Source of the DNA: Patescibacteria group bacterium
GTDB lineage: Bacteria; Patescibacteriota; Microgenomatia; UBA8517
Assembly: GCA_035291665.1 (NCBI GenBank)
Contig: DATDRP010000004.1
Coordinates: forward strand, 22,272-86,271
DNA length: 64,000 bases
Direction: 5' to 3'
A program made the translations under genes and the position numbers. Positions 1,248 through 39,733 of this stretch are shown in pieces. The first letter of the stretch is position 1. Each line of letters starts with the position of its first letter. The notes beneath the pieces are model-generated. The model made no database searches, was not told the origin of the DNA, and saw nothing but the letters and a program-made list of their open reading frames with translations.

Positions 1248-4200
1248 ATGACTGAAATTAGAAAGTTACATAAAGCCGGATCAAGAAGAATCAGCTACAA
1301 TCATTCGGAAGTTGAGAAATACTGGCAAAAAGTTTGGGATAAAGAAGGTCTGTACACTCCCGATATTCATAAATCTGAAAACAAATTTTATAACCTTTGG
1401 ATGTTTCCCTATCCTTCGGCAGAAGGAGTTCATGTAGGAACTATCTTTTCATCAACAGGGAGTGACGTTTACGGGAGATTTATGCGTATGAACGGATATT
1501 CTGTTTTTCAACCGATTGGTTTTGATTCGTTTGGCATTCACTCTGAAAATTACGCGATTAAAATAGGGGAAAATCCACGGTTTACACTAGGTAGAACTCT
1601 GCCACACTTCAAGAATCAATTCAAAATGATAGGTCATGAGTATGATTGGACTAAAACAGTGACAACGTCCGATATAGATTACTATAGATGGACACAGTGG
1701 ATATTTGTTGAATTGTTTAAAAGCGGTCTTGCATATCGCAAATATGTCAAGGTAAATTGGTGCCCTTCGTGTAAAACTGTGATTTCGGATGAACAGGTTG
1801 TAACACCTGCCCAAGCAGGTAAGGATCCAAGGGATGAGAATGGGGAGATCGTTAAAGAGGAAGAGGGGATGCGGGTTTGCGAAAGATGCGGCTTTTTGGT
1901 TCAGGATAAAGAACTTGAACAGTGGATGTTTCGGATTACTGATTATGCAGACCGGCTTCTTGACGGTCTTGGGGGTATTGATTGGCCGGAAAAAATAAAA
2001 ACCGCGCAAAAGAATTGGATTGGAAAAAGTACCGGGGCGCTTTTGACTTTTAACCTACAACCTACAACCCACCCCCCTGCGCACAAGGCTTCGGAAGGGC
2101 AAAGTATCCTACAACCAATTACAGTCTTTACAACCCGGCCAGATACGGTATTTGGTGCAACATTTATGGTGGTTGCCCCGGAATATGCGCAAAAATATCT
2201 ACTTAAATATATATCTGAAGATAAAATAAACGATGTAACAAAATATATCAATATATCCTTAAAGAAAACAAAGGACATCAGACTATTAAATAAGGAAAAA
2301 ACCGGCATTGAAACGGGATTGTTTGCTCTTAATCCGGCAACCAAGAAAGATATTCCTATTTATGTAGCCGATTATGTATTATCAGATTACGGGACAGGGG
2401 CAATTATGGCAGTTCCTGCTCATGATGAAAGAGATTTTGCATTTGCGAAGAAATTTAATCTACCGATTCATAAGGTAATAGATCAGACCTTGGAAACGCA
2501 TACGGTTTTGATAAAAAACAGCTTGGAGGATGGTTTTTCCGATGAAATTCAAAAAAACAATTGGTATCTGACTGATTATTTTGATTGGGGTTATGGATTA
2601 GTTCTTCCAGCTTCAGATGAGCACAAATTAATTGAGGTCATTCAAAAGTTTCTAAAATCTGGTCCTTGGTATGTGCATACCGACGGAAGTCTTAAAGCTG
2701 TTATTTTTAAAGATAAAGTTTTCAGTATCGAAAATGAAAATGAGCAGGCGAAAGATTATGCAAGAGAAATTTCTGTTACTGAAGAACAAATAGACTGGGA
2801 CAACAAGGATAACTATATGTTTTGCCACAATAAGAATGGGGTATTAGTCGATTCCGGTTCATGGAATGGTTTGAAGTATCCGGAAGATTACGAAAAGATA
2901 CTCTCTGATGTAGAAAAAAATGGCTGGGGGGAAAGAAAATCACAGTATCATCTTCGGGATTGGCTGATAAGCCGTCAACGATATTGGGGACCACCGATAC
3001 CGATGGTATTTTGTAGTAACTGTAAGAGTAAGGGTAAGAGTTGGTTTACATCTGAAAAATTTGATAACTACAAAAAACATATTAGAAATTCGAAATTAGA
3101 AATTAGAAATTTCGACGATTGGTCATCGTCAGGCTGGTATCCGGAAGAGAATCTTCCTGTTGAGCTTCCCGATATTCAAAATTATCAGCCTGAAGGCAAC
3201 GGCCGGGGGCCTTTGGCGAATCATCCTGAATTTTACAAAACTAAATGCCCGGAATGCGCAAGTGTTGCTAGAAGGGAAACCGATGTATCGGATACTTTTC
3301 TTGATAGTGCATGGTATTTTCTTCGTTATCCAAGCGTAAGAATAGAAGATCAGGAGAGTAGAAGAGTAGAAGATAAAAACAACTTACCTCTTACAACCGA
3401 CAACTTACAACTTCCCTGGTCACCGGAGGTAACCAGGGAATGGCTTCCGGTTGATCTTTACTTCGGCGGAGCAGAGCATGCTGTACTTCACCTTATGTAC
3501 GCGCGGTTCGTTTGGAAAGTATTGCGGGATTTGGGATATCTTGATTCCCAAAATGACGAACCCTTCCCGCGCTTTTTTGCACACGGATTGATGATAAAAG
3601 ACGGTGCCAAAATGAGTAAAAGCAAAGGCAACGTTGTCAACCCTGACGATTATGTGGAGAAATACGGCGCAGATACTTTACGGTTATACCTGATGTTCAT
3701 GGGACCGATGGATGGATATCCCGATTTCCGGGATACCGGTATCGAGGGAATGAGAAGATTTATCGAAAAACTTTATCAAGTTTTTCAAATGTCAGACGAC
3801 AAATATCAAATCACAAATAAAAATAAATTAGAGATAAAACAACATCAAACTATAAAAAAGGTGACCGAAGAGATACAACAATTCAAATACAACACTGCAA
3901 TTGCAGCGATTATGGAATACGTGAACTCGCTCCGCGAGTCAATTTCCAATTCCAAATTTCTAATTTCTAAACAACCAAAAAATTTGACAATAAAGCGATT
4001 CAGTGGTGATAAAATGGAAGAATCACCCACTTCTCAGGTTCTACAACCTACAACCTACAACCTATATCTACAAACTCTTGCACTTCTACTTGCTCCTTTT
4101 GCTCCGCACATAACCGAAGAGGTATGGCATAAAATCCTCGGTCACAAAAGTTCTATTCATCTTGCAAAATGGCCAAAATACGATTCGGAATTGGTTAAAG

Positions 4201-4400
4201 AGGAAACTATAACTATTCCGGTTCAAATTAATGGAAAACTAAGAGGCACAATTCAAATTGAGGCTGGTAAGTCAAATGATAAAGAATATGTTTTGAGCTT
4301 AGCCAAGGAAAATGAAAAAGTAAACAAATGGCTGAGTGCAGGAACGGTTAAAAAAGAGATTTATATTGAAGGTAGACTGGTGAATTATGTGGTCAGTTGA
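1248..4400 (+). CDS. leuS: leucyl-tRNA synthetase with several lineage-specific in-frame insertions
   Basis: 1050 aa. The N-terminal class-I catalytic core, the CP1 editing region (TRPDT), GGAEHAVLHLMYARF and the KMSKSKGN motif are all present. Low-complexity inserts such as LQPTT repeats and IRNSKLEIRNF interrupt the conserved blocks. Confidence 0.95.
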   Translation: MTEIRKLHKAGSRRISYNHSEVEKYWQKVWDKEGLYTPDIHKSENKFYNLWMFPYPSAEGVHVGTIFSSTGSDVYGRFMRMNGYSVFQPIGFDSFGIHSENYAIKIGENPRFTLGRTLPHFKNQFKMIGHEYDWTKTVTTSDIDYYRWTQWIFVELFKSGLAYRKYVKVNWCPSCKTVISDEQVVTPAQAGKDPRDENGEIVKEEEGMRVCERCGFLVQDKELEQWMFRITDYADRLLDGLGGIDWPEKIKTAQKNWIGKSTGALLTFNLQPTTHPPAHKASEGQSILQPITVFTTRPDTVFGATFMVVAPEYAQKYLLKYISEDKINDVTKYINISLKKTKDIRLLNKEKTGIETGLFALNPATKKDIPIYVADYVLSDYGTGAIMAVPAHDERDFAFAKKFNLPIHKVIDQTLETHTVLIKNSLEDGFSDEIQKNNWYLTDYFDWGYGLVLPASDEHKLIEVIQKFLKSGPWYVHTDGSLKAVIFKDKVFSIENENEQAKDYAREISVTEEQIDWDNKDNYMFCHNKNGVLVDSGSWNGLKYPEDYEKILSDVEKNGWGERKSQYHLRDWLISRQRYWGPPIPMVFCSNCKSKGKSWFTSEKFDNYKKHIRNSKLEIRNFDDWSSSGWYPEENLPVELPDIQNYQPEGNGRGPLANHPEFYKTKCPECASVARRETDVSDTFLDSAWYFLRYPSVRIEDQESRRVEDKNNLPLTTDNLQLPWSPEVTREWLPVDLYFGGAEHAVLHLMYARFVWKVLRDLGYLDSQNDEPFPRFFAHGLMIKDGAKMSKSKGNVVNPDDYVEKYGADTLRLYLMFMGPMDGYPDFRDTGIEGMRRFIEKLYQVFQMSDDKYQITNKNKLEIKQHQTIKKVTEEIQQFKYNTAIAAIMEYVNSLRESISNSKFLISKQPKNLTIKRFSGDKMEESPTSQVLQPTTYNLYLQTLALLLAPFAPHITEEVWHKILGHKSSIHLAKWPKYDSELVKEETITIPVQINGKLRGTIQIEAGKSNDKEYVLSLAKENEKVNKWLSAGTVKKEIYIEGRLVNYVVS

Positions 4401-4493
4401 TCGAAATAACCAGATGTTTCATCGAGAATTTCTTTAAAGACCCCTTCGGTTGCGAAGTTATATTAAACCTATATACAATGATTCAGGTGGACT

Positions 4494-5228
4494 ATGTTAA
4501 AAGATGAGGATGGCTTAACCGATGGTGATGGTTATATGGAATTTGAGGACAAGGACACCGACTCCAAAAAAACCTCGTTTGATTTTGAGAAATTTATTAA
4601 CAAGTATAAAGTACCGCTGGCGATTTTTTTACTGGGGCTCACCCTGACGGGTCTGGGGATATTCTTCCTTAAAAATGATAGTCCGACGGGAAGACAGAAG
4701 ATCGAAGTTCTAAGCACGGCTACAGAAAGCCAAAAGACAGAAAACAAAATCGTTGTCGAAATTGCAGGTGCCGTTAAAAAACCCGGAGTTTATACTTTTG
4801 AAAATTCAGATGTCAGAATAATCGACTTAATTTCTGTGTCCGGGGGATTTTCGGATGATGCCGACACTGTTTGGATTGACAAAGTAGTAAACAAAGCAGC
4901 AAAACTTAGTGACGGTGCCAAGTATTATATTAAGTCAGTGAATGATATGGACACTCCCGGTCCCGGTAAGCAAATAGAAGAAGAGAGTGCTAATAATTTA
5001 GATATATATCAAAGTGAATCACCTGTTTTTGGGGGCAGTAACGAAGGTTTAACCAATATTAATACAGCGTCAATTGACGAACTCGATAAACTACCCGGAA
5101 TAGGCCCTGTATACGGGAAAAGTATTGTTGAACACAGGCCTTACTCAGATATTAATGAGCTAGTCACTAAAAGTGCTTTGAAGCAGTATGTCTTCGATAA
5201 GATAAAAGAACTGGTTACCGTTAATTAA
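4494..5228 (+). CDS. comEA: competence protein ComEA (SLBB domain plus helix-hairpin-helix DNA-binding domain)
   Basis: N-terminal TM helix, an SLBB-like segment (KIVVEIAGAVKKPGVYTF) and a C-terminal HhH motif (NINTASIDELDKLPGIGPVYGKSIVEHR). Confidence 0.8.
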   Translation: MLKDEDGLTDGDGYMEFEDKDTDSKKTSFDFEKFINKYKVPLAIFLLGLTLTGLGIFFLKNDSPTGRQKIEVLSTATESQKTENKIVVEIAGAVKKPGVYTFENSDVRIIDLISVSGGFSDDADTVWIDKVVNKAAKLSDGAKYYIKSVNDMDTPGPGKQIEEESANNLDIYQSESPVFGGSNEGLTNINTASIDELDKLPGIGPVYGKSIVEHRPYSDINELVTKSALKQYVFDKIKELVTVN

Positions 5229-7733: not shown

Positions 7734-7916
7734 GCGCCTGTAGTTTAAAGGATAAAACTTTGGGTTTTCGATACCTAAAGGTAATGAAGTTCAGCCCTCG
7801 TAGCTTAACGGACAAAGTGACAGTTTCCGGAACTGTTGATGCCAGTTCAATTCTGGCCGAGGGCACAGATCGGATTAACCCAATGACTGGAGGTTCGATT
7901 CCTCTCAGGCGCACCA
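7734..7916 (+). other. tRNA-like outer gene: tRNA-Arg(TCG) 5' half and 3' half separated by a ~105-nt insert that contains tRNA-Arg(CCG)
   Basis: - 5' half: acceptor GCGCCTG, D-arm GTTT/AAAGGATA/AAAC, anticodon arm TGGGT-TTTCGAT-ACCTA.
- 3' half at 7888..7916: T-arm GGAGG-TTCGATT-CCTCT, acceptor CAGGCGC (perfect complement of the 5' acceptor strand), discriminator A and an encoded CCA. A T8 run follows. Confidence 0.3.
7794..7865 (+). tRNA. tRNA-Arg (anticodon CCG)
   Basis: Manual cloverleaf: GCCCTCG / TA / GCTT-AACGGACA-AAGT / G / ACAGT-TTCCGGA-ACTGT / TGAT / GCCAG-TTCAATT-CTGGC / CGAGGGC / A. U33 and A37 are present, there is a GG in the D-loop, and no CCA is encoded. Confidence 0.8.
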
Positions 7917-8030
7917 GTTTTTTTTGAGCGCCAGTTGTCGAACGCGGAATTTTCAAGTTCGAAAGGACAATGCCTTTTGGAGGCAATAGCCAGTGAGATT
8001 CACGATAGCGAAAGGATTCATAATCAAAAA

Positions 8031-9881
8031 ATGGATATTAAATCACAAATAATAAACTCTCTTCGTAAGGTAACGGGTGAGGAAGTGATGAAACTCGATG
8101 TACCTGAAAGGGAAGAGTATGGAGAATACTCCTCAAACATAGCGATGCAAATATTTGCAGGGGTAAAAGACCCGCCTGCCGGACTGGCAGGGCAAGAGAG
8201 TGGAAGAGTGGAAGATAAGGGAAATGTCATTGTGAATCCGAGCTTGTCGGGGACGAAGCAATCTTATTATAACAACCCCCGTCAGTTAGCAGAAGAGATA
8301 GTGAATAAATTAAATAACGATAAGGAACTTCTTGAAGTTGTCGAAAAAATTGATGTTGCCGGACCGGGTTTTATCAATTTCCATCTAAAACCTGACGCTT
8401 TGACAACAATTCTACGGGGGGTTTTGGAAGAGGGAAGTGATTACGGTCGTCTTTTTGTTAATAAAAATAAAAAGCTTTCATTTGAGTTTGGTCAACCGAA
8501 TACTCATAAACTGCCCCATATCGGCCATTTGTTCTCATACATTTTGGGATCATCCCTGTCAAACATCCTGGAAGAAACGGGCTACGAAATTCGCCGCGCA
8601 AATTATCAAGGGGACATTGGTCCTCATGTGGCAAAGTGTCTATGGGCATTTCTTAAAGAAAACCCAACGGTACCAGAGGACCTGGAAGGTAAAGTTAAAT
8701 TACTCCAATTAATGTACCAGCATGGAAGTGCCGCCTATGAAAAAGGTGGTACGGAGAAAGACGAAATTGATAAATTAAATCAGGACATTTACAACAATGT
8801 ACCGGAGGTACAGGAAATTCTTACAAAAACAAGAGAGTGGAGTAAAACTTATTATAAACAATTTGAAAAAAGATTAGATATTGAATTTGATCGATATTAT
8901 TATGAATCGGAAGTCCATCAAAAAGGATATGAATTGGTTAAAAATAATATCGGTAAAGTATTTTCGGAAAGCGAAGGTGCAGTTATTTATGAAGGAAGTA
9001 AAGCCGGACTCCACGACCGGGTTTTTATCACTTCCAGGAATACTCCAACATATGAAGCAAAGGACGTTTGTCTTGAGATCCTGAAATATGAAGAATTTCC
9101 ATATGACAAACTGATTATCACAACCGCAAGTGAACAAAATGAGTATTTCAAGGTAATTTTTTCTGCTATTGAAAAAGTTATGCCCGAACTTAAAGGAAAG
9201 CTTGAACATATCGGTTTCGGAATGGTAAACCTGAAATCCGGTAAAATGGCTTCGAGAACCGGCGAAATTATCGGTGCTGTTGATCTTGTTGACATGGTCG
9301 TAGCCGAAATCAGGAAAATTGTTGAGGATCGAAAAGACCTTTCGGAAGCTGAAAAAGAAGAGATTGCCGAAAGTGTCGGAATAGGCGCTGTAAAATATTC
9401 GTTTTTGAAGAATTCACCGCTCAAAGATACGAAGTTTGACATTAAAGAGAGTATTTCCAAGGAGGGCAATTCCGGGCCATATCTGCAATATACTTATGCA
9501 AGAACGCAGAGCGTTTTGGAAAAAGCGAAAAAACCGTCTACAGCCAACAGTCTACAGATAACAGAAAAACAAAAAACTGTAGACAGTAGTCTGTCAGCTT
9601 TAAGCTTGAACGAAGAAGAATTAAATATTCTTCGTTCACTTCTTCATTTTCCCGAAGCTGTCGAGGCTTCAGCTATCAGTTATTCACCCAATTTAATATG
9701 TAATTATGTTTATGATCTGGCTCAGAAATATAATACTTTTTATAACAAGCACGATATTTTGGAGCAAAGAACAAAAGATAAAAAGGTAAGCGAATACCGA
9801 TTATCATTAACAAAGGCAGTTGGGATAGTGATTGAAAATAGCCTCAAACTGCTCGGGATAAAAACACTCCTTAAAATGTAA
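8031..9881 (+). CDS. argS: arginyl-tRNA synthetase (an alternative upstream ATG at 7935 would add 32 aa)
   Basis: The N-terminal Arg_tRNA_synt_N-like segment (MDIKSQIINSLRK...VPEREEYGEYSSNIAM), the class-I motif PHIGHL and the C-terminal DALR anticodon-binding domain are present. A low-complexity insert ...GQESGRVEDKGN... also occurs. Confidence 0.9.
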   Translation: MDIKSQIINSLRKVTGEEVMKLDVPEREEYGEYSSNIAMQIFAGVKDPPAGLAGQESGRVEDKGNVIVNPSLSGTKQSYYNNPRQLAEEIVNKLNNDKELLEVVEKIDVAGPGFINFHLKPDALTTILRGVLEEGSDYGRLFVNKNKKLSFEFGQPNTHKLPHIGHLFSYILGSSLSNILEETGYEIRRANYQGDIGPHVAKCLWAFLKENPTVPEDLEGKVKLLQLMYQHGSAAYEKGGTEKDEIDKLNQDIYNNVPEVQEILTKTREWSKTYYKQFEKRLDIEFDRYYYESEVHQKGYELVKNNIGKVFSESEGAVIYEGSKAGLHDRVFITSRNTPTYEAKDVCLEILKYEEFPYDKLIITTASEQNEYFKVIFSAIEKVMPELKGKLEHIGFGMVNLKSGKMASRTGEIIGAVDLVDMVVAEIRKIVEDRKDLSEAEKEEIAESVGIGAVKYSFLKNSPLKDTKFDIKESISKEGNSGPYLQYTYARTQSVLEKAKKPSTANSLQITEKQKTVDSSLSALSLNEEELNILRSLLHFPEAVEASAISYSPNLICNYVYDLAQKYNTFYNKHDILEQRTKDKKVSEYRLSLTKAVGIVIENSLKLLGIKTLLKM

Positions 9882-19065: not shown

Positions 19066-19863
19066 ATGAAAACTCATAAAAATCCAAAAAGCAATCTTTC
19101 AAAGAAAGTTTTTGAACTTACTGAAGGTGTAGCAAGCAGATTGACTGATATGGTATTGATAATGCTGTATTACGGATTTGAAGCAGCTTTCTCCAGCCGG
19201 GGGGATCTATGGCAAGCTGGTGAAAAAGTAGTTGGTGATTTTGAATATCTAAACTCTAATTCTATAAAAAATGCCTTGAAGGGTTTGAAAAAACAGGGTT
19301 TTATCGGCAATAAAGGCAGTAGTGAAAATATTTCTGTTATAACAGAAACCGGGAGAAAGAAACTGAACGCAACTATTCCTTTTTACGACAATAAACGTAC
19401 TTGGGATAAACATGTGTATCTTGTTACTTACGACCTACCGGTCAGTAAAAACAATCAACGAAATTATCTCAGGACATATCTCAGGACTATCGGATGTGGA
19501 ATGCTCCAGGAAAGCGTTTGGGTTACACCATATAACCCAACGAAGTTAATTGATGAATTTGTCACGGATTCATTTCTTGAAGACAGTATGATATTGGTAT
19601 CATCATTCGGTAATGATGGTGCAATTGGGGACATGGATTTGCGATCGCTTATGGATAAGGTCTTTAAGCTTTCTGAAATAAACAAAAGATATCGCGATTT
19701 CTTACACCGGACTAATAACGGAGGTTTTACGAAAGAACAATTAATGTTTGGATATTTGGCAATACTGAAGGATGACCCTCAAATACCTTTTGAGTTATTA
19801 CCAGGTGATTGGCTTGGAGGTAAGGCAAATCAAGTTTTCCTCGAGAAGATAAAACAGGGCTAA
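19066..19863 (+). CDS. hypothetical protein, possibly a PaaX-like or Cas2-fold transcriptional regulator
   Basis: 265 aa. The segment HVYLVTYDLPVSKNNQRNYLRTYLRTIGCGMLQESVWVTP resembles the Cas2-like/PaaX C-terminal fold. This is a weak call made from memory only. Confidence 0.4.
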   Translation: MKTHKNPKSNLSKKVFELTEGVASRLTDMVLIMLYYGFEAAFSSRGDLWQAGEKVVGDFEYLNSNSIKNALKGLKKQGFIGNKGSSENISVITETGRKKLNATIPFYDNKRTWDKHVYLVTYDLPVSKNNQRNYLRTYLRTIGCGMLQESVWVTPYNPTKLIDEFVTDSFLEDSMILVSSFGNDGAIGDMDLRSLMDKVFKLSEINKRYRDFLHRTNNGGFTKEQLMFGYLAILKDDPQIPFELLPGDWLGGKANQVFLEKIKQG

Positions 19864-22253: not shown

Positions 22254-24500
22254 TTAGAGCTGATCCTTCAATAGATTCCAGTTATGTCTCATGATGACAT
22301 AATCAAGGTTATTAATACTTCCGCTTCGATCCAAGTCAACCAAGGACAGAGCTGTGCCGTAGTTGGGGAGCATATTAAGCGTGTAGTCGATCTCGTTTAT
22401 TTCACCGTCTCCATTAAAGTCTCCGCCCAGAAGTATCGGGTTTGAAAGATCAAGATACGAGTTTGTGGTTGATATTACAACAGGGTTTGTATCGCTTCCG
22501 TATTTTCTCGGGAGATATCCTGCAGTCTGAATCAGGAAAACATAATTACCTGTGGCGATTGATAGGATTGCTTCTCCTGCTGTATTTGTGGTTGCGGTTG
22601 TTTGAGTGATCGTTGTTGTATTGGGTTTACGATAAGAAACTGTGATGTTCGCACTGTTACTTACCCCGGTTCTCAACTTTCCCTGCATCTTGATTTTCAA
22701 AGTAACACTTGATGGAGAAGGAGTATTCGTAGCCGATACCGATGTCGGGGTAGCAGTAGGAGGTACATTTGTAGGTGTTGCGGTTGGTACAGATGTGGGT
22801 GGAACTGCAGTCGGACTGACTATGGCTCCGGGTTGAGAATATACTTCAAATTCTGCAAGCTGGAAGTAGTAATTATTATCAGAAGCATTTATTCTCAACT
22901 TTGTTGCATTAATCCTGACATATCTTGCAGTAACTTGCGTGAAGGAGAATGACTGGACGTTACTTGTCGGAAGCGCATAATTCGTAAGGTTTGCGACAGT
23001 TGTCCAAGTCGAATTATTTTGGGAAACCTGAACTGCAAAGTCGATCGGAAAGCCTTGTCCGACGTTTGAAACGTCATTTCTGGGATAAAGATTGACTTTT
23101 CCAACTGTATAGTTTGTTCCCAAATCAACGGTTATCCATTCAGTATGGGAGACACTCAAATTACTAAAACTACTCCATCCGAATGGTGCTGCGGATGAAC
23201 TTGTGTTTCCGTCAACTGCACCTGTTTTGAACCAACCCCAGTTTTCAATTGAGCTGGATGCCAGAACTGCTTTATTGAGTGCCAAATTCAAGTTTGATTG
23301 AATCGTCGGTGTGGCTGTTGGAATTTGTGTGGGAATAGCAGTTGGCTGTACGGTAGGTTGAACAGTCGGCGTTGCTGTCGGAGTTTGGCTGCCTGTTATT
23401 ATTACGGACGTCCCGTTGACGCTTGTCAGGATATCTACCGGATCTTGAGTATTCCATGTTCCGGTAAGAACCATATTCGAGTCATTTCTACCTCCCGGAG
23501 TAAAGTCGAATGTAATCTGAGATCCGGAACTAACTGCGACTCCTTTGAAAATGATATCCCCAACATGGATATTCGATCCGTTAACAGGAGTGGTTGAGGT
23601 GCCGGATCCGACATTAACTGAAATATACGCAGTTCCGGTCGTATTATTGAAAGTTAGTCTTGGGGTTGAGGTAAATCTTGGTTCATTTCCTTTTACAACA
23701 GTCACGGCTTGAAGTACTGCCGGATTGTAGTTTACTATCGCGTCAATACCGTCAACGTTTTGTCCGGCCGTATCTCCATAGATACTTACTGTAAATTGAG
23801 TGTTCAGCGTCTTTGTGCCAGGATTTGTAAGGAAAAGCCTTGCAGAACTTACTGGATTTACGGTGATATTGGCTGGAGTTGTCTGAACACCGAGCAAAAC
23901 TGATTGCATGTTATATACTTCTGTGGATTGAGACAGGCTTACTACGGCTGTTTGATTTGAGTTTGAAGTATTTTGATCGAATGTCAGCTTTGCGATGTTG
24001 GCTATGCCGGAGAGTGGTGGTGCCGGTTGAGGAGTCGGAGTACTATCGTTATATCCGATTGCGATTACCAACCTGAAGCTACCCGTTGTATTTGCCGAGG
24101 CCATTGAAGTTTTTTGAACGACTGTCCAATATTGGGGGATTACTTGGATTTCTTGAGTAAGTTTGACCATCGTAGGATCAAAATTTCCTTGCAAATCGAC
24201 AAATCCCACCTGTTCACCCTGAGTATTAATATTAAGATCGAGTGTTGTTGAAGGAGGGACGGATGCCGTAGAAGGACTCAAGTAAAGACTAACTGTTGTG
24301 ACAGCCGCCTTCAGCCTAAGTCTGATTTCTCTTTGGACTAAATAAACTCCCACAATTGCAGAGATTGTCAGAAAAATTACCAATCCAAGCTGCATTGGAT
24401 GAAGTTTTTTAAGTTTGGCAAGCAAAACTCGAAACGCTTTTTTTAAGTCGACTACATTTTTTAACATAAATAAAAAATATGTCTTTATTAACAACATCAT
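22254..24500 (-). CDS. scaffoldin-like protein: N-terminal TM anchor, two cohesin-like domains, F5/8-type-C (discoidin/CBM32-like) domain, divergent C-terminal dockerin-like module
   Basis: - Cohesin-like patterns: VGFVDLQGNFDPTMVKL...SGIANIAKLTFD and VDGIDAIVNYNPAVLQAVTV...GDIIFKGVAVSSGSQITFDF.
- Discoidin signature: ...WSSFS...EWITVDLGTNYTVGKVNLYPRND...
- C-terminus: GGDFNGDGEINEIDY...DLDRSGSINNLDYVIM, two Ca-loop-like segments. Confidence 0.6.
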   Translation of the reverse strand: MMLLIKTYFLFMLKNVVDLKKAFRVLLAKLKKLHPMQLGLVIFLTISAIVGVYLVQREIRLRLKAAVTTVSLYLSPSTASVPPSTTLDLNINTQGEQVGFVDLQGNFDPTMVKLTQEIQVIPQYWTVVQKTSMASANTTGSFRLVIAIGYNDSTPTPQPAPPLSGIANIAKLTFDQNTSNSNQTAVVSLSQSTEVYNMQSVLLGVQTTPANITVNPVSSARLFLTNPGTKTLNTQFTVSIYGDTAGQNVDGIDAIVNYNPAVLQAVTVVKGNEPRFTSTPRLTFNNTTGTAYISVNVGSGTSTTPVNGSNIHVGDIIFKGVAVSSGSQITFDFTPGGRNDSNMVLTGTWNTQDPVDILTSVNGTSVIITGSQTPTATPTVQPTVQPTAIPTQIPTATPTIQSNLNLALNKAVLASSSIENWGWFKTGAVDGNTSSSAAPFGWSSFSNLSVSHTEWITVDLGTNYTVGKVNLYPRNDVSNVGQGFPIDFAVQVSQNNSTWTTVANLTNYALPTSNVQSFSFTQVTARYVRINATKLRINASDNNYYFQLAEFEVYSQPGAIVSPTAVPPTSVPTATPTNVPPTATPTSVSATNTPSPSSVTLKIKMQGKLRTGVSNSANITVSYRKPNTTTITQTTATTNTAGEAILSIATGNYVFLIQTAGYLPRKYGSDTNPVVISTTNSYLDLSNPILLGGDFNGDGEINEIDYTLNMLPNYGTALSLVDLDRSGSINNLDYVIMRHNWNLLKDQL

Positions 24501-24532
24501 ATTCCTGTAATGTTGTCAATAGCCTTGTTAGA

Positions 24533-25858
24533 TTATAGACTATAATTCCCAAACCAAACAATATAATCAGCGCCATTTACGATCCCGTCTCTATTAAAAT
24601 CTCCGACAATATTTCCCGAAGTTGTGGGTTTTTGATAGTTTGTAAACCAAATTAAGTAATCGGCGCCGTTTGCCTTGCCGTCTCCATTTGCATCACCGGA
24701 ATTTGACCGAATCGAAGTCGGGTATACCGAAGGCAACTGATCGCTAGCTGGGACAACCACTTCTACATAATTTGACAATACAGATTCCGATCCGTTTATA
24801 TTAACAGCCGAAACGTTATAAATATATGTTTTACCCGATGTAACGCTTGTATCGGTATACGAAGTCTGATTTGCAGTAAAATCGGGGCCGTATCCGCCAT
24901 CGTCGCGCCCAATCCGATAATGGGAAATGTAGGGAGTAGTAGATGAATTCCAGGAAAGCGATACCGATTTTGATGTGATTCCCGTGACTTTCAAATTTGA
25001 AGGAGCACATACAGCGGTTCTTATTACGTTTGCAGACGAGGATACGTTACCGGAATTATCCTGGGCTGTTACTTCATAGCTGTAAGAACCACAAGACAAC
25101 GATTTATCAGTATATTGATAGCTTTCAGTAACTTGATCCATGATCGGAGTGAAGCTGTGAATTTTTGTACCGTTACGCCAAATAGAATAATTCGGAATAT
25201 CGCGATTATCTTTGGATGCAGTGCTTGTCAATTCAAAACTGTATTGCATATAATCTGAAGTGTTCTTAACGGTCAGATACGGCGCAGTCGGAGCAGTTTT
25301 GTCGACAATATTTATTATATTGTAATCAAAAGCTTCCCATTCCTCATTAAATCCAAGGTCGGGATTGAATGCATGGGCGACAACCAAATAATCTCTAACG
25401 GGATATAAATTGCTGTCGAAAGAACAGGTGAATGGAGCTGAGAAGTCAGTACACAGTTCCCAAACGTTTGGTTTATCATAATTTTCTTCCAGTCCGAATT
25501 TGACATATTTGACATCACCTGTAGTTGTGACAGTTATGTTTACCAATCCTTCAGCACTATAACCCTCTTGGGGTGAAGTGACTGTGATTGTGATCAGACC
25601 GAGTGGGGGTGTGGGAAGCGGTGTGACGGTAGGGGTGGGAACTCCGCAAGACCAAATGCAGGATGTATCGTTTGAACAAGATGAGTACTCAAAACTTGAA
25701 CAATAGGAAGGACCTGTACAACAGGAATACGCTTCGGATCTTTCGGCGGTTTTCGGATTTTGTGTAAAAAAGATGGCTATATATAAAGTGACGGATAAGA
25801 TCCCGACTGCGGAAATCTGAAGGAATAACGGTTTTTTTAATTTGTTAAGAAAATGCAT
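24533..25858 (-). CDS. secreted Ig-like/fibronectin-III repeat protein with C-terminal dockerin-like module
   Basis: N-terminal hydrophobic anchor or signal, a Cys-rich segment and Fn3-like repeats (SNLKVTGITSKSVSLSWN...). C-terminal GDANGDGKANGADYLIWFTNY...GDFNRDGIVNGADYIVWFGNY. Confidence 0.65.
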   Translation of the reverse strand: MHFLNKLKKPLFLQISAVGILSVTLYIAIFFTQNPKTAERSEAYSCCTGPSYCSSFEYSSCSNDTSCIWSCGVPTPTVTPLPTPPLGLITITVTSPQEGYSAEGLVNITVTTTGDVKYVKFGLEENYDKPNVWELCTDFSAPFTCSFDSNLYPVRDYLVVAHAFNPDLGFNEEWEAFDYNIINIVDKTAPTAPYLTVKNTSDYMQYSFELTSTASKDNRDIPNYSIWRNGTKIHSFTPIMDQVTESYQYTDKSLSCGSYSYEVTAQDNSGNVSSSANVIRTAVCAPSNLKVTGITSKSVSLSWNSSTTPYISHYRIGRDDGGYGPDFTANQTSYTDTSVTSGKTYIYNVSAVNINGSESVLSNYVEVVVPASDQLPSVYPTSIRSNSGDANGDGKANGADYLIWFTNYQKPTTSGNIVGDFNRDGIVNGADYIVWFGNYSL

Positions 25859-25957
25859 ACTCAGGTTATTTTAAGAATATGCTTAAAAGGAATTGATTGT
25901 CAAACAAAAATATTCAAAGAGGGTAAATGAATTTCGCTATTTATACGTATTTCAAGA

Positions 25958-26074
25958 ATACCCCATCTGAAGGCAATTGCCGAAGGATGGGGATGAATTG
26001 AATTAAGAATGTAACCTCGTTTAGACGGATCCGAAAGGATACCCCGCCTGAAAGCGACAGCGAGAGGGTGGGGA
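25958..26074. repeat. tandem duplicated hairpin element (2 x ~55 bp): taCCCCaTCtgaaggcaattgccgaaggaTGGGG / taCCCCgCCtgaaagcgacagcgagagGGTGGGG
   Basis: Two adjacent stem-loops with 7-bp G/C stems sit in the intergenic gap between two minus-strand dockerin genes. The spurious 60-aa ORF 25900..26082 shows the repeat as HPxAxAFRxGIL x2. Confidence 0.55.
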
Positions 26075-26103
26075 GGTTTCATATCAATGTATAAGAAAAT
26101 AGA

Positions 26104-28005
26104 TCACTTCCCGTAATTTCCGAACCAGATGATGTAATCAGCTCCGTTAACTATGGTATCTCTATTAAAATCTCCTGCTGATGGACCTTGGCTGGTTGTT
26201 TTTTTGTAGTTATTAAACCAGATCAAGTAATCGGCTCCGTTTACTTTTCCGTCGCCATTTGCATCCCCCGGTTTTGAAGTCGCCGTCGGGGTGGCTGTTG
26301 GAGTAACACTCGGTCCGCCGGTTGGCGGAGTAGGAGTAGATGAAGCCTGCGGTGTAGGCGAGGGTGGTATCGAACCGTTTACACTTATAGCTGTTGAAAA
26401 TTCACTTGCCAGTCCCGACCACTCAACCGATTTAACTTTAAACCAGGTATTTGATGTTGATCCTTGGTATCCGATACTGCCTGTATACAACCAGACAAAA
26501 GAGTCGTTCCAATGCTCGGCCGCGGTTGATCCCAGTACTCCTCGGACCAAGCCTGTAAACGAGGTGGGGGTCCTGCCGGTATAACTGACTAGTTCATTTG
26601 GTTTTTCGGATGACAGACCGGATATCTCCAGTGTACCTTGATCTGGAAAACCTGTTGTAGAATCTACATTAATTGAAGTTTGGTTATTTGTAATTTTGCT
26701 GGGAGCGTTCAGGTACGTTAACAATGAGGGGAGCAATGCAATCTGGTTATAAGTTCCCCCCTGGCTGGTGGAACCGTATATTTGATATTCCTTAATTTCC
26801 CGATGGTTAGGAGCGGGTTTAAAAGTGACTATTACATTACCGCCCGACGAAACCGCTTTCATATCAGAAGGTGCGGCGGGTTTCTTAAAAATAACATAGT
26901 AGAGATTTTTGTTTCCAGCTTGGCGAATATCTCCGCTAAATGCAATTTTAGTCGTATCGGGACTGAAGCTGGCGTTGACATAATCCCTGCCCGCATCACT
27001 CCCGTAATTTGCCACTCTTACCGGAGCCGATCCGGAAGTTGTGAGCGGTTGCGGAACACTGAAGACAAGAACGTGACCAACCTCGCCTCCAAGGTTAGCT
27101 CCCAGAACCATCCATTTAGCGTCAGGACTGAAGTTGGTGTGATCGCCATAAACTGCACCGTTTATCATAGTTAATTGTCTGGTTGCCGTATCTCGGGCAA
27201 AAAGAGTATTTGCATATTGAAAATCCGACCCATTCCCTCCGATCCAACCTTGACCTCCACCAATCATATAAGCAGAATCGGACAGGGTAGGATGGTCAAA
27301 AAGTCCTGCCCAGGTTTGGTTCCCTACATTAAGCTGGCCAAGAAATGTACCGGTATTAACATCAAAAACCATCGGTACATCTGTATATTGTTCCCATTGG
27401 CTATTATTAAGATACCAAGCGGCATTGTTACCCAGCCAGCCGTGGGTAACATCAAACCCACCTGACTGTCTGCCGGGGGAAACATAACCACGGCAATTTG
27501 TACCGTCAAGGTTAATGAACTTAACTGTACCTGTCCCGGAGCTGATATCGTTGGAGTTAGCAATACCTGAGAGTGTCCTTCCGTCGGGGCTAAGCATAGA
27601 AAAATAAAAAGGGAGGCAGGATGAGGCATTTGGAATTTGTGAAGATATGTTAGCGGCGATTTCTGTTTGGTAGAGATTTTCTTTTGAATAGTAGAACTTG
27701 CTGTCGTGGCTCCACCATCCCATCAGACCTTCCCCGACACCGCTGGAAGGGGCGCTTAAAGTGTGATTATTGTTTCCGTCAGTATTCATAACGTTATTAG
27801 GTCCGGTGATTATATATTGGCCATTAGGACTGAATGGGTTGGAAGTGTAATAAGAGGTAGGGTAGCTTGCAGAAGTATTAGTCATTCGCCATATTTCAAA
27901 GCCGGTTTCCGGATCGGTAAAGATTTCCTTGGGAGCTGCCTGAACAGGTGAGACAAAGATGGTAATAGTTAATATTGCGATAAAAACCTTAAACCAATGT
28001 GACAT
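26104..28005 (-). CDS. secreted beta-propeller (TolB/WD40-like) plus Fn3-like protein with C-terminal dockerin-like module
   Basis: Signal peptide, repeated propeller-blade-like segments, a Fn3-like domain, a TP-rich linker (TPTATPTATSKP) and GDANGDGKVNGADYLIWFNNY...GDFNRDTIVNGADYIIWFGNYGK. Confidence 0.65.
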   Translation of the reverse strand: MSHWFKVFIAILTITIFVSPVQAAPKEIFTDPETGFEIWRMTNTSASYPTSYYTSNPFSPNGQYIITGPNNVMNTDGNNNHTLSAPSSGVGEGLMGWWSHDSKFYYSKENLYQTEIAANISSQIPNASSCLPFYFSMLSPDGRTLSGIANSNDISSGTGTVKFINLDGTNCRGYVSPGRQSGGFDVTHGWLGNNAAWYLNNSQWEQYTDVPMVFDVNTGTFLGQLNVGNQTWAGLFDHPTLSDSAYMIGGGQGWIGGNGSDFQYANTLFARDTATRQLTMINGAVYGDHTNFSPDAKWMVLGANLGGEVGHVLVFSVPQPLTTSGSAPVRVANYGSDAGRDYVNASFSPDTTKIAFSGDIRQAGNKNLYYVIFKKPAAPSDMKAVSSGGNVIVTFKPAPNHREIKEYQIYGSTSQGGTYNQIALLPSLLTYLNAPSKITNNQTSINVDSTTGFPDQGTLEISGLSSEKPNELVSYTGRTPTSFTGLVRGVLGSTAAEHWNDSFVWLYTGSIGYQGSTSNTWFKVKSVEWSGLASEFSTAISVNGSIPPSPTPQASSTPTPPTGGPSVTPTATPTATSKPGDANGDGKVNGADYLIWFNNYKKTTSQGPSAGDFNRDTIVNGADYIIWFGNYGK

Positions 28006-28058
28006 GGAAGTAATTTAATAATCCATCAAAGTGAGGGTTGATGTCAATAAAATTCAAT

Positions 28059-30686: not shown

Positions 30687-30696
30687 TTATTTTGAT

Positions 30697-33342: not shown

Positions 33343-33466
33343 ACTATGTACGGAAGTTTAATATACTTCTTAAGTCTATCTTACGAAGAATTTAATTATC
33401 AAGGACTAATTTGTAATTGGCCACAGAAGCCTGATATAAGAGTATATAAATAGTATTGGAAAGTTA
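33343..33466 (-). promoter_or_regulatory. conserved intergenic promoter region upstream of the 30697..33342 gene (duplicate of 37169..37291)
   Basis: The ~120-bp intergenic sequence is about 90% identical to the region upstream of the paralogous PQQ gene. On the minus strand it contains TTGATA...TATATT-like elements. Confidence 0.35.
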
Positions 33467-34699: not shown

Positions 34700-34855
34700 A
34701 TAATTTTCCGCTTAGTAATTTCTTGGTTATTGCTATTATTTATATTACCCTGTTATGGAATATTTTTAAACTGTCTTTAAAAAACCCTTCCTGGGCGGTG
34801 AGTATTTCATAAGTAAAGAGAGCGGCCTTTGAAAACCATAGATATTAAAGTTGGA

Positions 34856-37168: not shown

Positions 37169-37291
37169 ACTATATACGGAAGTTTTGTATAATTGTTAAG
37201 TCTATCTTACGAAGAATTTGATTATCAAGGACTAATTTGAGTTTAGCCACCAGCAAACGATATACATATATATAGTAGTATGGTAAAGGTA
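37169..37291 (-). promoter_or_regulatory. conserved intergenic promoter region upstream of the 34856..37168 gene (duplicate of 33343..33466)
   Basis: See the 33343..33466 entry. Confidence 0.35.
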
Positions 37292-39649: not shown

Positions 39650-39733
39650 AATAAAGCCTTATATCATTTTGTTGCGGTTGAACATTGAAGTCAAGTGGTG
39701 TCAATGTTGTTTATCTCGAATATTAACAAAAAC

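Follow-up and report, generated by a model that had tools for sequence, protein, structure and literature searches.

A tRNA-Arg(CCG) gene nested within a second tRNA-Arg-like gene in a Patescibacteria genome

The nested tRNA genes and their linkers

The window (the whole stretch of DNA that was analysed, 64,000 nucleotides) contains a tRNA-Arg(CCG) gene lying between the two halves of another tRNA-Arg-like gene. The nested arrangement was defined as an intact tRNA-Arg(CCG) within two tRNA-Arg-like halves whose acceptor strands pair, and the window matches both composite patterns. The features are as follows.

7734-7772, + strand: 5' half of the outer tRNA-Arg-like gene (direct reading; ARAGORN -io)
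7734-7740, + strand: outer acceptor stem, 5' strand GCGCCTG, with U8 and A9 next (direct reading)
7743-7758, + strand: outer D arm, GTTT/AAAGGATA/AAAC (direct reading)
7760-7765, + strand: outer anticodon stem, 5' strand TTGGG(T) (TGGGT at 7761-7765)
7766-7772, + strand: outer anticodon loop TTTCGAT, with TCG at 7768-7770
7773-7793, + strand: 5' linker, the leader of the inner tRNA (direct reading, ARAGORN, fold)
7794-7865, + strand: inner tRNA-Arg(CCG), a full canonical cloverleaf; CCA is not encoded (ARAGORN, Rfam)
7866-7877, + strand: 3' linker, the trailer of the inner tRNA, CAGATCGGATTA
7878-7916, + strand: 3' half of the outer tRNA-Arg-like gene (direct reading, ARAGORN, alignment A3)
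7878-7883, + strand: outer anticodon stem, original 3' strand (A)CCCAA
7884-7888, + strand: outer variable loop TGACT, of the normal 5 nt
7889-7905, + strand: outer T arm GGAGG/TTCGATT/CCTCT
7906-7912, + strand: outer acceptor stem, 3' strand CAGGCGC
7913 and 7914-7916, + strand: outer discriminator A and encoded CCA
7918-7925, + strand: T8 run, adjoining the outer acceptor and T-arm helices (direct reading)

The inner gene is a complete tRNA, as an earlier sequence-only reading of this DNA had proposed. ARAGORN called tRNA-Arg(CCG) at 7794-7866 with default settings, and the Rfam model RF00005 matched 7794-7865 with 65 bits (E = 1e-13, model positions 1-71 of 71), above the gathering score of 29 bits; the gene also has the cloverleaf and the 7-nt anticodon loop required of a tRNA call. 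Its four stems are all paired, and its cloverleaf is retained in the MFE fold of the whole 183-nt unit. The inner and outer tRNAs of the window share 62% identity.

The elements that the sequence-only reading had listed for the two outer halves were all recovered by direct reading. It had also described the CCA as followed by the T8 run; both are present but not contiguous, G7917 lying between them. The T8 run is likely to serve as the intrinsic-terminator tail of the whole nested unit; it was absent from the output of a simple terminator scan. The suggested check with the intron options of ARAGORN recovered the outer gene with -io, whereas default settings and the plain intron option missed it. 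The -io call was a tRNA-Arg(tcg) spanning 7734-7916, with a 105-nt insert (7773-7877) between positions 38 and 39; it is placed there because a second copy of the anticodon-stem 3' strand, ACCCAA (7878-7883), follows the insert and pairs perfectly. This agrees with the insert length of about 105 nt given earlier, but its location in the variable loop is not supported. The distal CCCAA (7879-7883) aligns with the anticodon-stem 3' strand of all relatives and is followed by a normal variable loop, which puts the break at the 3' edge of the anticodon loop.

No RF00005 match to the outer halves (7734-7916) was obtained in the Rfam scan even at E ≤ 10, and the sole Rfam match on the outer 3' half was a weak one to the tmRNA tRNA-like domain (7889-7935, 12.5 bits). 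Covariance models that score only the inner tRNA had been named beforehand as an argument against the outer gene, and RF00005 did leave the outer halves unmatched; however, a contiguous model is unable to bridge a 105-nt insert, and thus this outcome is not decisive.

When the insert was deleted in silico, default ARAGORN called tRNA-Arg(TCG) with an anticodon stem of 6 bp. All four stems of this spliced form are paired (0 mismatches, 1 G.U pair), and it keeps U8, A14, G18G19, A20, U33, C35, G36, A37, the T-loop, A73 and CCA. If it is a pseudogene, this mismatch-free state suggests that the event was recent or that the halves are under selection. Its anticodon arm is not canonical, having neither a 5-bp stem nor a 7-nt loop: there are 9 nt between the conserved strands TTGGG and CCCAA, and the arm is two bases longer than in the intact gene of L210 and in eight other outer genes (A3). 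The identity tRNA-Arg(TCG) proposed for the outer gene is thus plausible, with a body of Arg type, but uncertain because the loop region is non-canonical. In A3 the columns of the window outer gene match up one by one with those of nine other outer genes. Its spliced form shares 79% identity with the spliced outer gene of L196 and 76% with the intact L210 tRNA-Arg(CCG). Its body belongs to a GCGCC-type tRNA-Arg lineage, whose members in relatives include CCG and GCG isoacceptors.

The 5' linker opens with ACCTAA (7773-7778), which is able to close the anticodon stem locally with one G.U pair, and a 4-bp mini-hairpin (TACC-TAAA-GGTA) lies at 7772-7783. This linker aligns with the 5' arm of the hairpin element GGTACGTAA.../GGCACGTAA... 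in L196 and L200 (alignment A1). The candidate pair ACCTAA/ACCCAA was weakened as a clean target-site duplication, since ACCTAA aligns with this hairpin arm of the L196/L200 insert. ATCGGA in the 3' linker is able to pair with UUCGAU of the outer loop; the extra 6-bp pairing alone was matched by 168 of 1000 shuffles. A candidate compensatory change preserving this junction helix relative to L196 was dropped, as the helix alone is not significant. The window linkers have no significant leader-trailer complementarity (z = +1.2, 25-nt flanks), and no second copy of either was found in the 64 kb at up to 3 mismatches.

Chance and assembly error were both considered as sources of the arrangement. 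The composite patterns spanning both tRNAs gave one match in the window and 0 in 100 shuffles, which excludes chance. The window sequence, nested region included, recurs at 100% identity over 17-20 kb in two independent Logan assemblies (L008 and L009), which excludes an assembly artefact.

Nested loci and intact relatives in other genomes

At least about 16 further loci with the nested arrangement, nearly all from CPR/Patescibacteria, were found by protein-anchored look-ups and by two pattern scans that demanded an inner CCG anticodon. At least eight of them are in GTDB genomes, including Patescibacteria, Parcubacteria, Saccharibacteria, Peribacteraceae and one Omnitrophota. The ten matches in JGI metagenomes reduce to eight distinct loci, L195, L199 and L204 being one and the same. 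The window unit aligns with L196 and L200 along its full length, through the outer gene, the linker and the inner tRNA (A1).

The recurrent inserts are about 100-140 nt long and contain a whole tRNA-Arg(CCG) of 72-75 nt, usually with complementary flanks and sometimes with an extra hairpin. At the other loci the insertion point is usually in a palindromic anticodon loop (YTCC|GGA), most often exactly at C35|G36. The leader and trailer of the inner tRNA are significantly complementary to each other at 8 of 12 other nested loci; for example, the terminal complementary arms are 12 bp in L112 and 10 bp in L183. The flanks differ in sequence between families, which indicates conservation of structure rather than of sequence. 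Some copies are flanked by short direct repeats (GGTTCA in L112, ACCYAA in the window), and in several outer genes there are inserts made of a hairpin alone, whose arms are those of the tRNA inserts.

The arm motif CCCCGCAC/GTGCGGGG was rejected as a genome-wide REP-like repeat, being confined to the nested region in 13 loci, and the arm motifs are not dispersed within the 8 kb surrounding the nested loci. On viral contigs, the first scan pattern (TTCGA...YTCCGGA...GGTTCRAWTCC) gave 62 matches, all of them tandem tRNAs or chance, and stricter patterns were substituted; the stricter pattern gave three matches there, none of which was a tRNA within a tRNA. Most matches of the genome scan were false as well, arising from a Streptomyces tRNA-Met context, from the T loop of tRNA-Ser and tRNA-Gly themselves, or from archaeal intron-containing tRNAs. 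Nothing similar to the 183-nt unit was found in phage records. Att-type partial duplications of tRNA-Arg(CCG) were met at L180 and L198. No account of a bacterial tRNA gene enclosing another tRNA was found in the literature searched.

The comparison with relatives that the sequence-only reading had recommended was informative, and an orthologous Microgenomates tRNA cluster (comF - Ser - Ser - Arg GCG - Ser - Arg CCG - NUDIX) yielded intact, interrupted and half-lost outer-type genes. In L210 the outer-type gene is an intact Arg(CCG), 88% identical to the spliced L196 outer gene. The genes of L196, L200 and L201 are interrupted; L212 has the outer 5' half and the inner tRNA, the 3' half being absent; and L206 has a single tRNA, 85% identical to the L196 inner tRNA. 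The outer 5' half of the window matches that of L212, and the inner tRNA is 78% identical to the L212 inner tRNA. The encoded CCA was rejected as a mark of special or foreign outer genes: it is also present in intact relatives of the same lineage (L210 Arg(CCG), L212 Arg(GCG)), and the neighbouring tRNA-Ser genes do not encode it. As judged from these sequences, the CCA is ancestral to the GCGCC-type lineage and not special to the nested state.

The genomic site of the window differs from the sites of these relatives. No tRNA was found upstream of argS in six syntenic argS loci (L002-L007, ArgS identity about 55%). The contig of an ArgS relative with 92% identity (P0006) has no sequence upstream of argS, and its first 1154 bp mismatch the window and are possibly chimeric. 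The window encodes its own ArgRS (ArgS) at 8031-9881. No record was found for this exact protein or for its 634-aa form, and no ArgS was found beside the other nested loci.

The inner tRNAs have 1 mismatch in total over 12 loci (in L202). Among 16 outer genes, by contrast, full pairing was seen in only 5, and the rest show mismatches, a disrupted T stem, lost arms or additional hairpin inserts. For example, parts of the anticodon arm are missing from the outer genes of L145, L197 and L205, and the T stem is broken in the L195-type outer gene. The outer acceptor and T stems of L145 and L197 persist without the anticodon arm. Identity is higher for the inner than for the outer genes both between L203 and L096 (95% versus 71%) and between L201 and L202 (85% versus 69%), so that in both pairs the insert is more conserved than its host gene. 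Compensatory change across loci was seen in 15 of 21 outer pairs. Moreover, L196 and L200 share a locus and a homologous insert, and their outer stems are separated by several changes that are fully compensatory; these would mean selection on the outer structure after insertion, provided that both inherited the insert from a common ancestor.

Origin of the arrangement and fate of the outer halves

Signs of splicing and of known mobile elements were also sought. With permissive thresholds, Rfam matched no group I intron or other ribozyme family, whether for the window region or for eight nested loci. Inspection of the folds and co-folds of the window, L196, L200, L201 and L202 revealed no bulge-helix-bulge (3-4-3) motif; what forms is a plain helix whose internal loops are asymmetric. 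Splicing endonuclease, RNA ligase, integrase and transposase were absent from the 40 window proteins scanned against Pfam, and from the surroundings of the other nested units (ten units for integrase). The inserted segment is a complete different tRNA and not the 3' fragment of an integrase-type att duplication. The several copies characteristic of MITE-like elements were not found either (window linkers over 64 kb; arm motifs over 13 loci), and the terminal inverted repeats expected of such elements reach significance at 8 of 12 other nested loci, though not at that of the window.

The best explanation, to which a probability of about 0.6 might be given, is that a small insert with a functional tRNA-Arg(CCG) disrupted a resident tRNA-Arg, the outer halves being a remnant that would now act as leader, trailer and terminator. 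The sequence-only reading had offered a non-canonical intron, disruption by an insertion and a nested processing arrangement; disruption by insertion is favoured by the comparative evidence, which includes the uninterrupted gene of L210, the interrupted genes of L196, L200 and L201, and the decayed genes of L212, L205 and L195. On this view, the insert of about 105 nt would have entered a resident GCGCC-type Microgenomates tRNA-Arg at the 3' edge of the anticodon loop, leaving the inner gene as the functional one and the outer halves as leftovers of the disrupted gene. A single transcript might start upstream of 7734 and end in the T8 run (7918-7925), with the outer halves forming a 60-nt leader and a 51-nt trailer that could pair through the 7-bp acceptor helix and UUGGGUU/AACCCAA. 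RNase P would then cleave at 7793/7794 and RNase Z 3' of A7865, after which the CCA-adding enzyme would finish tRNA-Arg(CCG), and leader and trailer would be discarded. Since the insert supplies the function that it destroyed, the host gene would be free to decay. The host gene visibly decays, and the insert is therefore probably not removed by splicing. Comparison with the relatives further suggests that CPR inserts recur in tRNA-Arg genes and bring about an in-place replacement of the tRNA gene.

It is unlikely that the outer gene still yields a functional tRNA-Arg(UCG), from which RNase P and RNase Z would excise the embedded tRNA and whose pieces would either act as a two-piece tRNA or be trimmed and ligated. 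In the two-piece case, the 7-bp acceptor stem together with pairing of the linkers might hold the halves to each other, with the proximal ACCUAA closing the anticodon stem in cis; the proximal ACCTAA does complete the anticodon hairpin of the 5' piece. The four paired stems, the Arg identity elements (A20, C35, G36, A73) and the CCA are consistent with this, as are the five fully paired outer genes elsewhere and the compensatory change in their pairs. CGA codons are used at 3.6 per 1000, so that some tRNA must read CGA; the relatives have Arg(GCG), not ACG, and a UCG reader is thus probably needed. However, the insert of most relatives splits the anticodon (C35|G36), which would leave a two-piece product unable to decode, and we know of no bacterial enzyme set that removes an insert of this type. 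Bulge-helix-bulge motif and ribozyme are both absent, and the window outer gene has two extra anticodon-arm bases. The outer genes are also clearly dispensable, with the 3' half absent in L212, arm parts missing in L145, L197 and L205, and the T stem broken in the L195-type gene. Cleavage by RNase P and RNase Z leaves 3'-OH and 5'-P ends, and the outer products would bear tails of 21 nt and 12 nt. It seems quite improbable that a working outer tRNA-Arg(UCG), two-piece or ligated after such excision, is made here, with one transcript giving two arginine tRNAs.

There is also a small chance that the outer halves are no longer tRNA but have been selected as an expression and processing scaffold. 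Such a scaffold would consist of a promoter-proximal leader, a leader-trailer clamp presenting the inner tRNA to RNase P and RNase Z, and a terminator made of the acceptor and T-arm helices with the T8 run. The significant leader-trailer complementarity of most nested loci, with sequences differing by family, would fit a clamp, and the outer acceptor helix forms in the whole-unit MFE fold (z = -3.4). The T8 run 3' of the outer gene, and the acceptor and T stems that outlast the anticodon arm in L145 and L197, point in the same direction. Yet the inner-type tRNA works without the outer 3' half (L212) or without any outer gene (L206), the window linkers are not significantly complementary, and ordinary tRNAs of the same genomes need no scaffold. 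A one-off local rearrangement unrelated to the other nested loci, such as a partial duplication or a deletion among tandemly arrayed tRNA-Arg genes, or what remains of integrase-mediated recombination at a tRNA attachment site, is very improbable. It would agree with the existence of the att-type duplications at L180 and L198, with the lack of strong terminal repeats in the window insert and with the distinct genomic site; but the full-length alignment with L196 and L200 and the similarity of both the outer 5' half and the inner tRNA to L212 argue against it. The same is true of the insert, a complete different tRNA rather than a 3' fragment, and of the absence of integrase from the window proteins scanned.

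Implications and comparison with known systems

If an insert carrying a tRNA disrupted and replaced the resident gene, the locus represents a route of tRNA gene turnover that is apparently undescribed: a new copy lands in the anticodon loop of a resident gene of the same identity and takes over. Once fixed, an insert of this kind would not easily be lost, which might be a simple "addictive" strategy for a very small genetic element. The preferred palindrome TCC|GGA in the tRNA-Arg(CCG) anticodon loop implies a site-specific activity in CPR bacteria, either enzymatic or recombinational. For genome annotation, standard tRNA finders show only the inner gene, and intron-tolerant settings can report a "tRNA-Arg(TCG)" that may be non-functional; the tRNA complement of small CPR genomes may be misjudged under either setting. 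If a functional outer tRNA were true instead, the locus would provide the first bacterial example of a split or "tRNA-punctuated" tRNA and a test of tolerated interruption, and the hairpin and tRNA inserts of CPR would be removed at the RNA level by a new bacterial pathway.

Disrupted tRNA genes are known from Archaea, including non-canonical bulge-helix-bulge introns, the transposing introns of Thermoproteales, and split and tri-split tRNAs (Fujishima et al. 2009, 2010, summarised in PMC10714607 and PMC4033280). The archaeal genes are similar in having short inserts at the anticodon, D or T loop with complementary flanks, and the inserts move between tRNA genes, several of them being possible in one gene. 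The present case differs in that it belongs to Bacteria, with no bulge-helix-bulge at the junction and no splicing endonuclease seen; moreover, the insert is a whole tRNA of the same amino-acid identity, and the host gene decays. Bacterial group I introns also sit in anticodon loops, such as those of tRNA-Leu(UAA), tRNA-fMet, tRNA-Arg(CCU) and tRNA-Ile, and are about 200 nt or longer. They resemble the present inserts as mobile anticodon-loop insertions in bacterial tRNA genes that are conserved beyond their host genes; however, the inserts here are 105-140 nt including the tRNA, match no ribozyme, and do not keep the host intact.

Integrative elements in tRNA genes span kilobases, carry their own integrase gene and repair the tRNA gene by supplying a 3' fragment. 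Williams is said to have described in 2002 their use of tRNA genes as att sites, with crossover in the anticodon or T loop. Symmetric anticodon-loop or T-loop targets and short duplications of tRNA sequence are common to both cases, whereas the insert here is about 100 nt, has no integrase nearby, is a complete different tRNA and leaves the host split. The intervening sequences (IVS) of rRNA are excised by RNase III. The rRNA genes of CPR contain numerous intervening sequences and introns (Tsurumaki et al. 2022, cited in PMC10714607). These are similar in the organism group and as hairpin-like inserts in structural RNA genes, whereas in the present case both target and cargo are tRNA, with no sign that the host RNA stays functional. 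MITE, REP and PATE elements are likewise small and protein-free, with terminal complementary arms and, in some cases, flanking direct repeats. Unlike these elements, the present inserts occur in one copy per sampled locus, their target is specific to tRNA-Arg, and their cargo replaces the function of the target.

Anatomy of the nested tRNA-Arg unit

An intact tRNA-Arg(CCG) is enclosed by a split tRNA-Arg-type gene in the window, and homologous units exist elsewhere. The complete tRNA between two tRNA halves, as proposed by the sequence-only reading, was borne out by direct reading of 7734-7925, by ARAGORN and by the tRNA model of Rfam (65 bits for the inner gene).

Elements of the nested unit in the window, in order
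From 7734: outer tRNA 5' half; acceptor GCGCCTG, D arm, TTGGGT, loop TTTCGAT (direct reading of 7734-7925)
Next 21 nt: 5' linker between the outer 5' half and the inner tRNA (direct reading)
7794-7865: complete inner tRNA-Arg(CCG) (ARAGORN and Rfam tRNA model)
Next 12 nt: 3' linker between the inner tRNA and the outer 3' half (direct reading)
Then: outer tRNA 3' half; ACCCAA, TGACT, T arm, CAGGCGC, A, CCA (direct reading)
To 7925: G, then T8 (direct reading)

The Rfam model scored the inner gene but did not see the outer one in the window search, and default ARAGORN also missed it. Only when the overlap option was added to the intron option did ARAGORN call a tRNA-Arg(tcg) at 7734-7916, in which a 105-nt insert (7773-7877) separates positions 38 and 39. 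The outer anticodon stem could be closed in two ways: its 3' strand is either the proximal ACCTA(A), as in the sequence-only reading, or the distal ACCCA(A), which gives perfect pairing. After in-silico removal of the insert, default ARAGORN called tRNA-Arg(tcg) for both stem versions, but with a 6-bp anticodon stem; the proposed tRNA-Arg(TCG) identity is plausible, and the anticodon arm is non-canonical. In the fold of the 183-nt RNA (-62.1 kcal/mol, z = -3.4), both the outer acceptor helix and the inner cloverleaf are preserved. Composite patterns over both tRNAs had a single match in the window and none in shuffled sequences. CCA is encoded in the outer gene; it is absent from the inner tRNA and from the other two tRNAs of the window.

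The insert had been placed in the variable loop, which the alignment of spliced outer genes does not support. In this alignment, the TTGGG and CCCAA of the window correspond to the anticodon-stem strands of all the others and TGACT to their variable loops, and the interruption therefore sits at the anticodon loop. Between the stem strands are 9 nt (TTTTCGATA) in the window versus 7 in the others, so that exact excision of 7773-7877 yields no canonical arm.

Two independent Logan assemblies (L008 and L009) show zero mismatches to the window over 17-20 kb with the nested region covered, and the unit is therefore not an artefact; the same protein is also carried by an NCBI MAG. The competence genes comEA and comEC adjoin the nested locus. 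ArgS (8031-9881) lies just 3' of the unit, and its best named relatives are from Woesebacteria and other Patescibacteria (~54% identity), which marks the organism as a Microgenomates-type CPR bacterium from a sparsely sampled group. No tRNA was found 5' of argS, with or without intron options, at six loci of relatives (ArgS ~55% identity) that share the gene order comEA - comEC - MBL-fold - small ORF - argS; therefore, the unit arrived here in the lineage of the window or was lost elsewhere. The only 92%-identical ArgS relative is carried by a 2.2-kb ENA contig (L001, k141_917075). The last 1056 bp of this contig are 99.3% identical to the window and its first 1154 bp match nothing in it, so that it probably represents either a chimera or a recombinant strain.

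Of the window proteins, 40 were scanned, and they comprise housekeeping proteins, hypothetical proteins and surface proteins with dockerin domains. The minus strand at 22254-40897 holds a run of eight consecutive large ORFs (387-881 aa); seven have a dockerin type I domain, beside F5/8 type C, fn3, CBM6, PQQ-propeller, GDSL-lipase or laminin-G modules. Such a cluster of putative surface or secreted proteins is unusual for a CPR genome. The protein at 19066-19863 (+) has PaaX central Cas2-like and PaaX C-terminal domains, with a weak Cas2 match.

Recurrence of the unit and the orthologous locus

Two large scans were carried out as single runs with exact patterns that required a CCG inner anticodon, and their results cover CCG inner genes only. 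One searched GTDB (one genome per species) for cases in which another T loop comes too soon after the anticodon loop and T loop of a tRNA-Arg(CCG); most matches were false positives, and at least eight were true nested units. The other searched JGI metagenomes with a stricter pattern, and 10 of the 12 matches were nested.

Nested units (GTDB entries are among the matches listed)
L096, L126: Patescibacteria (GTDB)
L112, L183: Parcubacteria (GTDB)
L145, L174: Saccharibacteria; L174 partly masked (GTDB)
L142: Peribacteraceae (GTDB)
L113: Ca. Velamenicoccus, Omnitrophota (GTDB)
L195, L199, L204 (one locus), L196, L197, L200, L201, L202, L203, L205: JGI metagenomes

Every nested unit from the two scans has an intact tRNA-Arg(CCG) as its inner gene, enclosed by halves with a T arm and complementary acceptor strands. 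The neighbours are ordinary housekeeping genes, and no Rfam ribozyme or intron family matched among the nested loci searched. In L096, an 854-aa protein (2047-4608, minus strand) with an intein containing a LAGLIDADG homing-endonuclease domain is encoded ~1.8 kb from the nested tRNA.

The rejected matches included L078, L085, L089, L117 and ~15 other Streptomyces loci, which share a conserved context with TCCGGA...TTCRA at a fixed distance 5' of a tRNA-Met. Ordinary partial duplications of the attachment-site type form a distinct class: a Micavibrio MAG (L180) repeats the 3' 45 nt of tRNA-Arg(CCG) in tandem, and a metagenome contig (L198) has a hybrid tRNA-Arg(CCG) with a foreign 3' portion, then the displaced original.

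L196, the one metagenome contig placed taxonomically, carries beside its tRNAs a ComF whose named relatives are in Gottesmanbacteria and Daviesbacteria (Microgenomates). L196, L200 and L201 share the cluster Ser(GCT), Ser(TGA), Arg(GCG), Ser(CGA), nested Arg(CCG), Ser(GGA), and further states were obtained from contigs of ComF relatives.

States of the tRNA-Arg(CCG) position in the cluster
L210 (GCA_040961665.1): uninterrupted tRNA-Arg(CCG), 88% identical to the spliced L196 outer gene, CCA included
L196, L200, L201: interrupted (nested)
L212: outer 5' half GCGCCTG TA GTTT AACGGATA..., as in the window, with extra inserts and the inner tRNA
L206: one tRNA only, 85% identical to the L196 inner gene

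The outer 3' half is missing from L212 because a NUDIX gene begins 2 nt past the inner tRNA. An intact version of the host gene thus exists at an orthologous site, and these states show that the outer type is a genuine tRNA lineage which can be interrupted and then lost. The encoded CCA, present in the L210 Arg(CCG) and the L212 Arg(GCG) and absent from the adjacent tRNA-Ser genes, is a property of this lineage. Near the comF-tRNA cluster of relatives were also found "23S rRNA intervening sequence protein" family genes (L206 997-1371; L209 1-246 and 771-1136) and a small GIY-YIG nuclease (L208 7750-8001).

Insertion sites and decay of the host gene

The outer-gene junctions and stems were parsed by hand, least certainly in L113, L142 and L174. 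Each outer gene whose anticodon arm could be read is also a tRNA-Arg(CCG), split in the loop between YTCC and GGA (L096, L183, L174, L203/L195, L201, L202, L196, L200 and L142); the core of the split loop, TCCGGA, is a 6-bp palindrome. Other insertions are in the T loop (L112, whose insert has 12-bp complementary arms at its ends and a copy of GGTTCA on either side), in the variable region (L113), or replace the whole anticodon arm (L145). Complementary arms flank the inner tRNA in most units and differ in sequence from family to family (CCCCGCAC/GTGCGGGG, GCCCG/CGGGC, GGCACGT/ACGTGCC and CCCTGCACCAAA/TTTGGTGCAGGG); no arm motif was found in the surroundings of the nested loci. Several of the outer genes considered (L096, L183, L174, L195, L142, L126, L205, L196 and L200) also have 30-40 nt hairpin-only inserts, located after position 26 or within the D or anticodon loop (for example, CCCCAGCACC-AGAGCGAAGCTC-GGTGCGGGG). 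These resemble "empty" versions of the tRNA insert, because their arms match those around the inner tRNA of the same family.

The inner genes have one stem mismatch in total (n = 12), whereas 5 of 16 outer genes are fully paired (window, L196, L201, L202 and L183). The others have C.A or other mismatches (L200, L096, L112, L113, L126), a broken T stem (L203/L195), or missing arms (L145, L197, L205, L142, L126, L212). The inner genes are thus under constraint, and the outer genes decay. In L210 and the nine best outer genes, 97% of cells are paired and 15 of 21 pairs show compensatory change. This shows descent from diverse real tRNA-Arg genes, the changes themselves being undated. The insert is far better conserved than the host gene between L203 and L096 (inner 95%, outer 71% identity) and between L201 and L202 (85%, 69%). 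L203 (1-395) and L195 (1339-1733) are 100% identical over 395 bp, including the insert, outer 3' half and downstream flank, and only 64% identical upstream of the anticodon stem; this is either a recent recombination with its breakpoint in the tRNA or an assembly chimera.

The arrangement probably arose when a small tRNA-bearing segment entered the anticodon-loop region. A site-specific event, either cut-and-insert or recombination, is suggested by the palindrome preference, the complementary arms at the insert ends and the short direct repeats seen in some cases. The L203/L195 block suggests that spread between relatives may take place with the tRNA halves serving as homology arms. The competence genes of these bacteria also bear on the insertion route. 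The whole unit would be one transcript ending at the T8 run. tRNAs without an encoded CCA are normally released by RNase P and RNase Z in bacteria, with later CCA addition, and the inner tRNA would be freed in this way, the outer halves being leader and trailer. Dependence of the cell on the inner copy would explain the persistence of the insert.

A functional outer tRNA, in two pieces or spliced, seems unlikely. The outer stems of the window are without defect and retain the Arg identity elements, and CGA (3.6 per 1000 codons in the window) requires a reader. Eight Microgenomates-type clusters (L196, L200, L201, L206, L207, L208, L210, L212) contain tRNA-Arg(GCG), not tRNA-Arg(ACG), which suggests that CGN decoding is not inosine-based and that a separate UCG reader of CGA is needed. 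A body of the type GCGCC..., GGAGG TTCGATT CCTC., ...GGCGCA CCA is common to the CCG and GCG isoacceptors of relatives, and a UCG isoacceptor of this type is plausible in the window; equally, its outer loop may be a mutated junction. Provided that the insert predates their split, the pair L196 and L200 makes the strongest case for selection on the outer gene: both genes diverged similarly (77% vs 74%), and the outer stems differ at several places in a compensatory way. However, the anticodon arm is non-canonical, outer genes are clearly dispensable elsewhere, and bacteria are not known to have machinery for such maturation. No integrase, transposase, RNA ligase or splicing endonuclease was among the 40 proteins scanned in the 64 kb analysed.

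Selection of the outer halves as a scaffold is similarly doubtful. Leader-trailer pairing is conserved at other loci, being better than shuffles at 8 of 12 (z = -2.6 to -5.6); however, the window is not among them, and its insert is the shortest, with the weakest flanking complementarity, of those examined. An unrelated local rearrangement is highly improbable, since the window unit aligns with L196 and L200 from end to end, through the outer 5' half, the linker start (TACCTAAAG against TACGTAA / CACGTAAAG), inner tRNA, trailer and outer 3' half. Its spliced outer gene is 79% identical to that of L196 and 76% to the intact L210 gene, and its inner gene is 78% identical to that of L212. The most probable reading of the window copy is a recent gene disruption, not an exotic functional tRNA.

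Relation to known systems

The nested arrangement is related to disrupted tRNA genes and to small inserts in structural RNA genes, and its interest lies in its recurrence. A full-text literature search found no description of a tRNA nested in a tRNA gene of this kind; the only paper found that ties disrupted tRNAs to CPR concerns archaeal tRNAs and CPR rRNA introns. Some features are shared with the disrupted tRNA genes and transposing tRNA introns of archaea, the group I introns that interrupt anticodon loops in bacteria, tRNA genes used as integrase attachment sites, the rRNA inserts of CPR bacteria, and MITE-like elements. However, the nested units unite four features that none of these systems has together: an insert of ~100 nt, a full tRNA cargo for the same amino acid, a preference for the anticodon loop of its own gene, and decay of the host.
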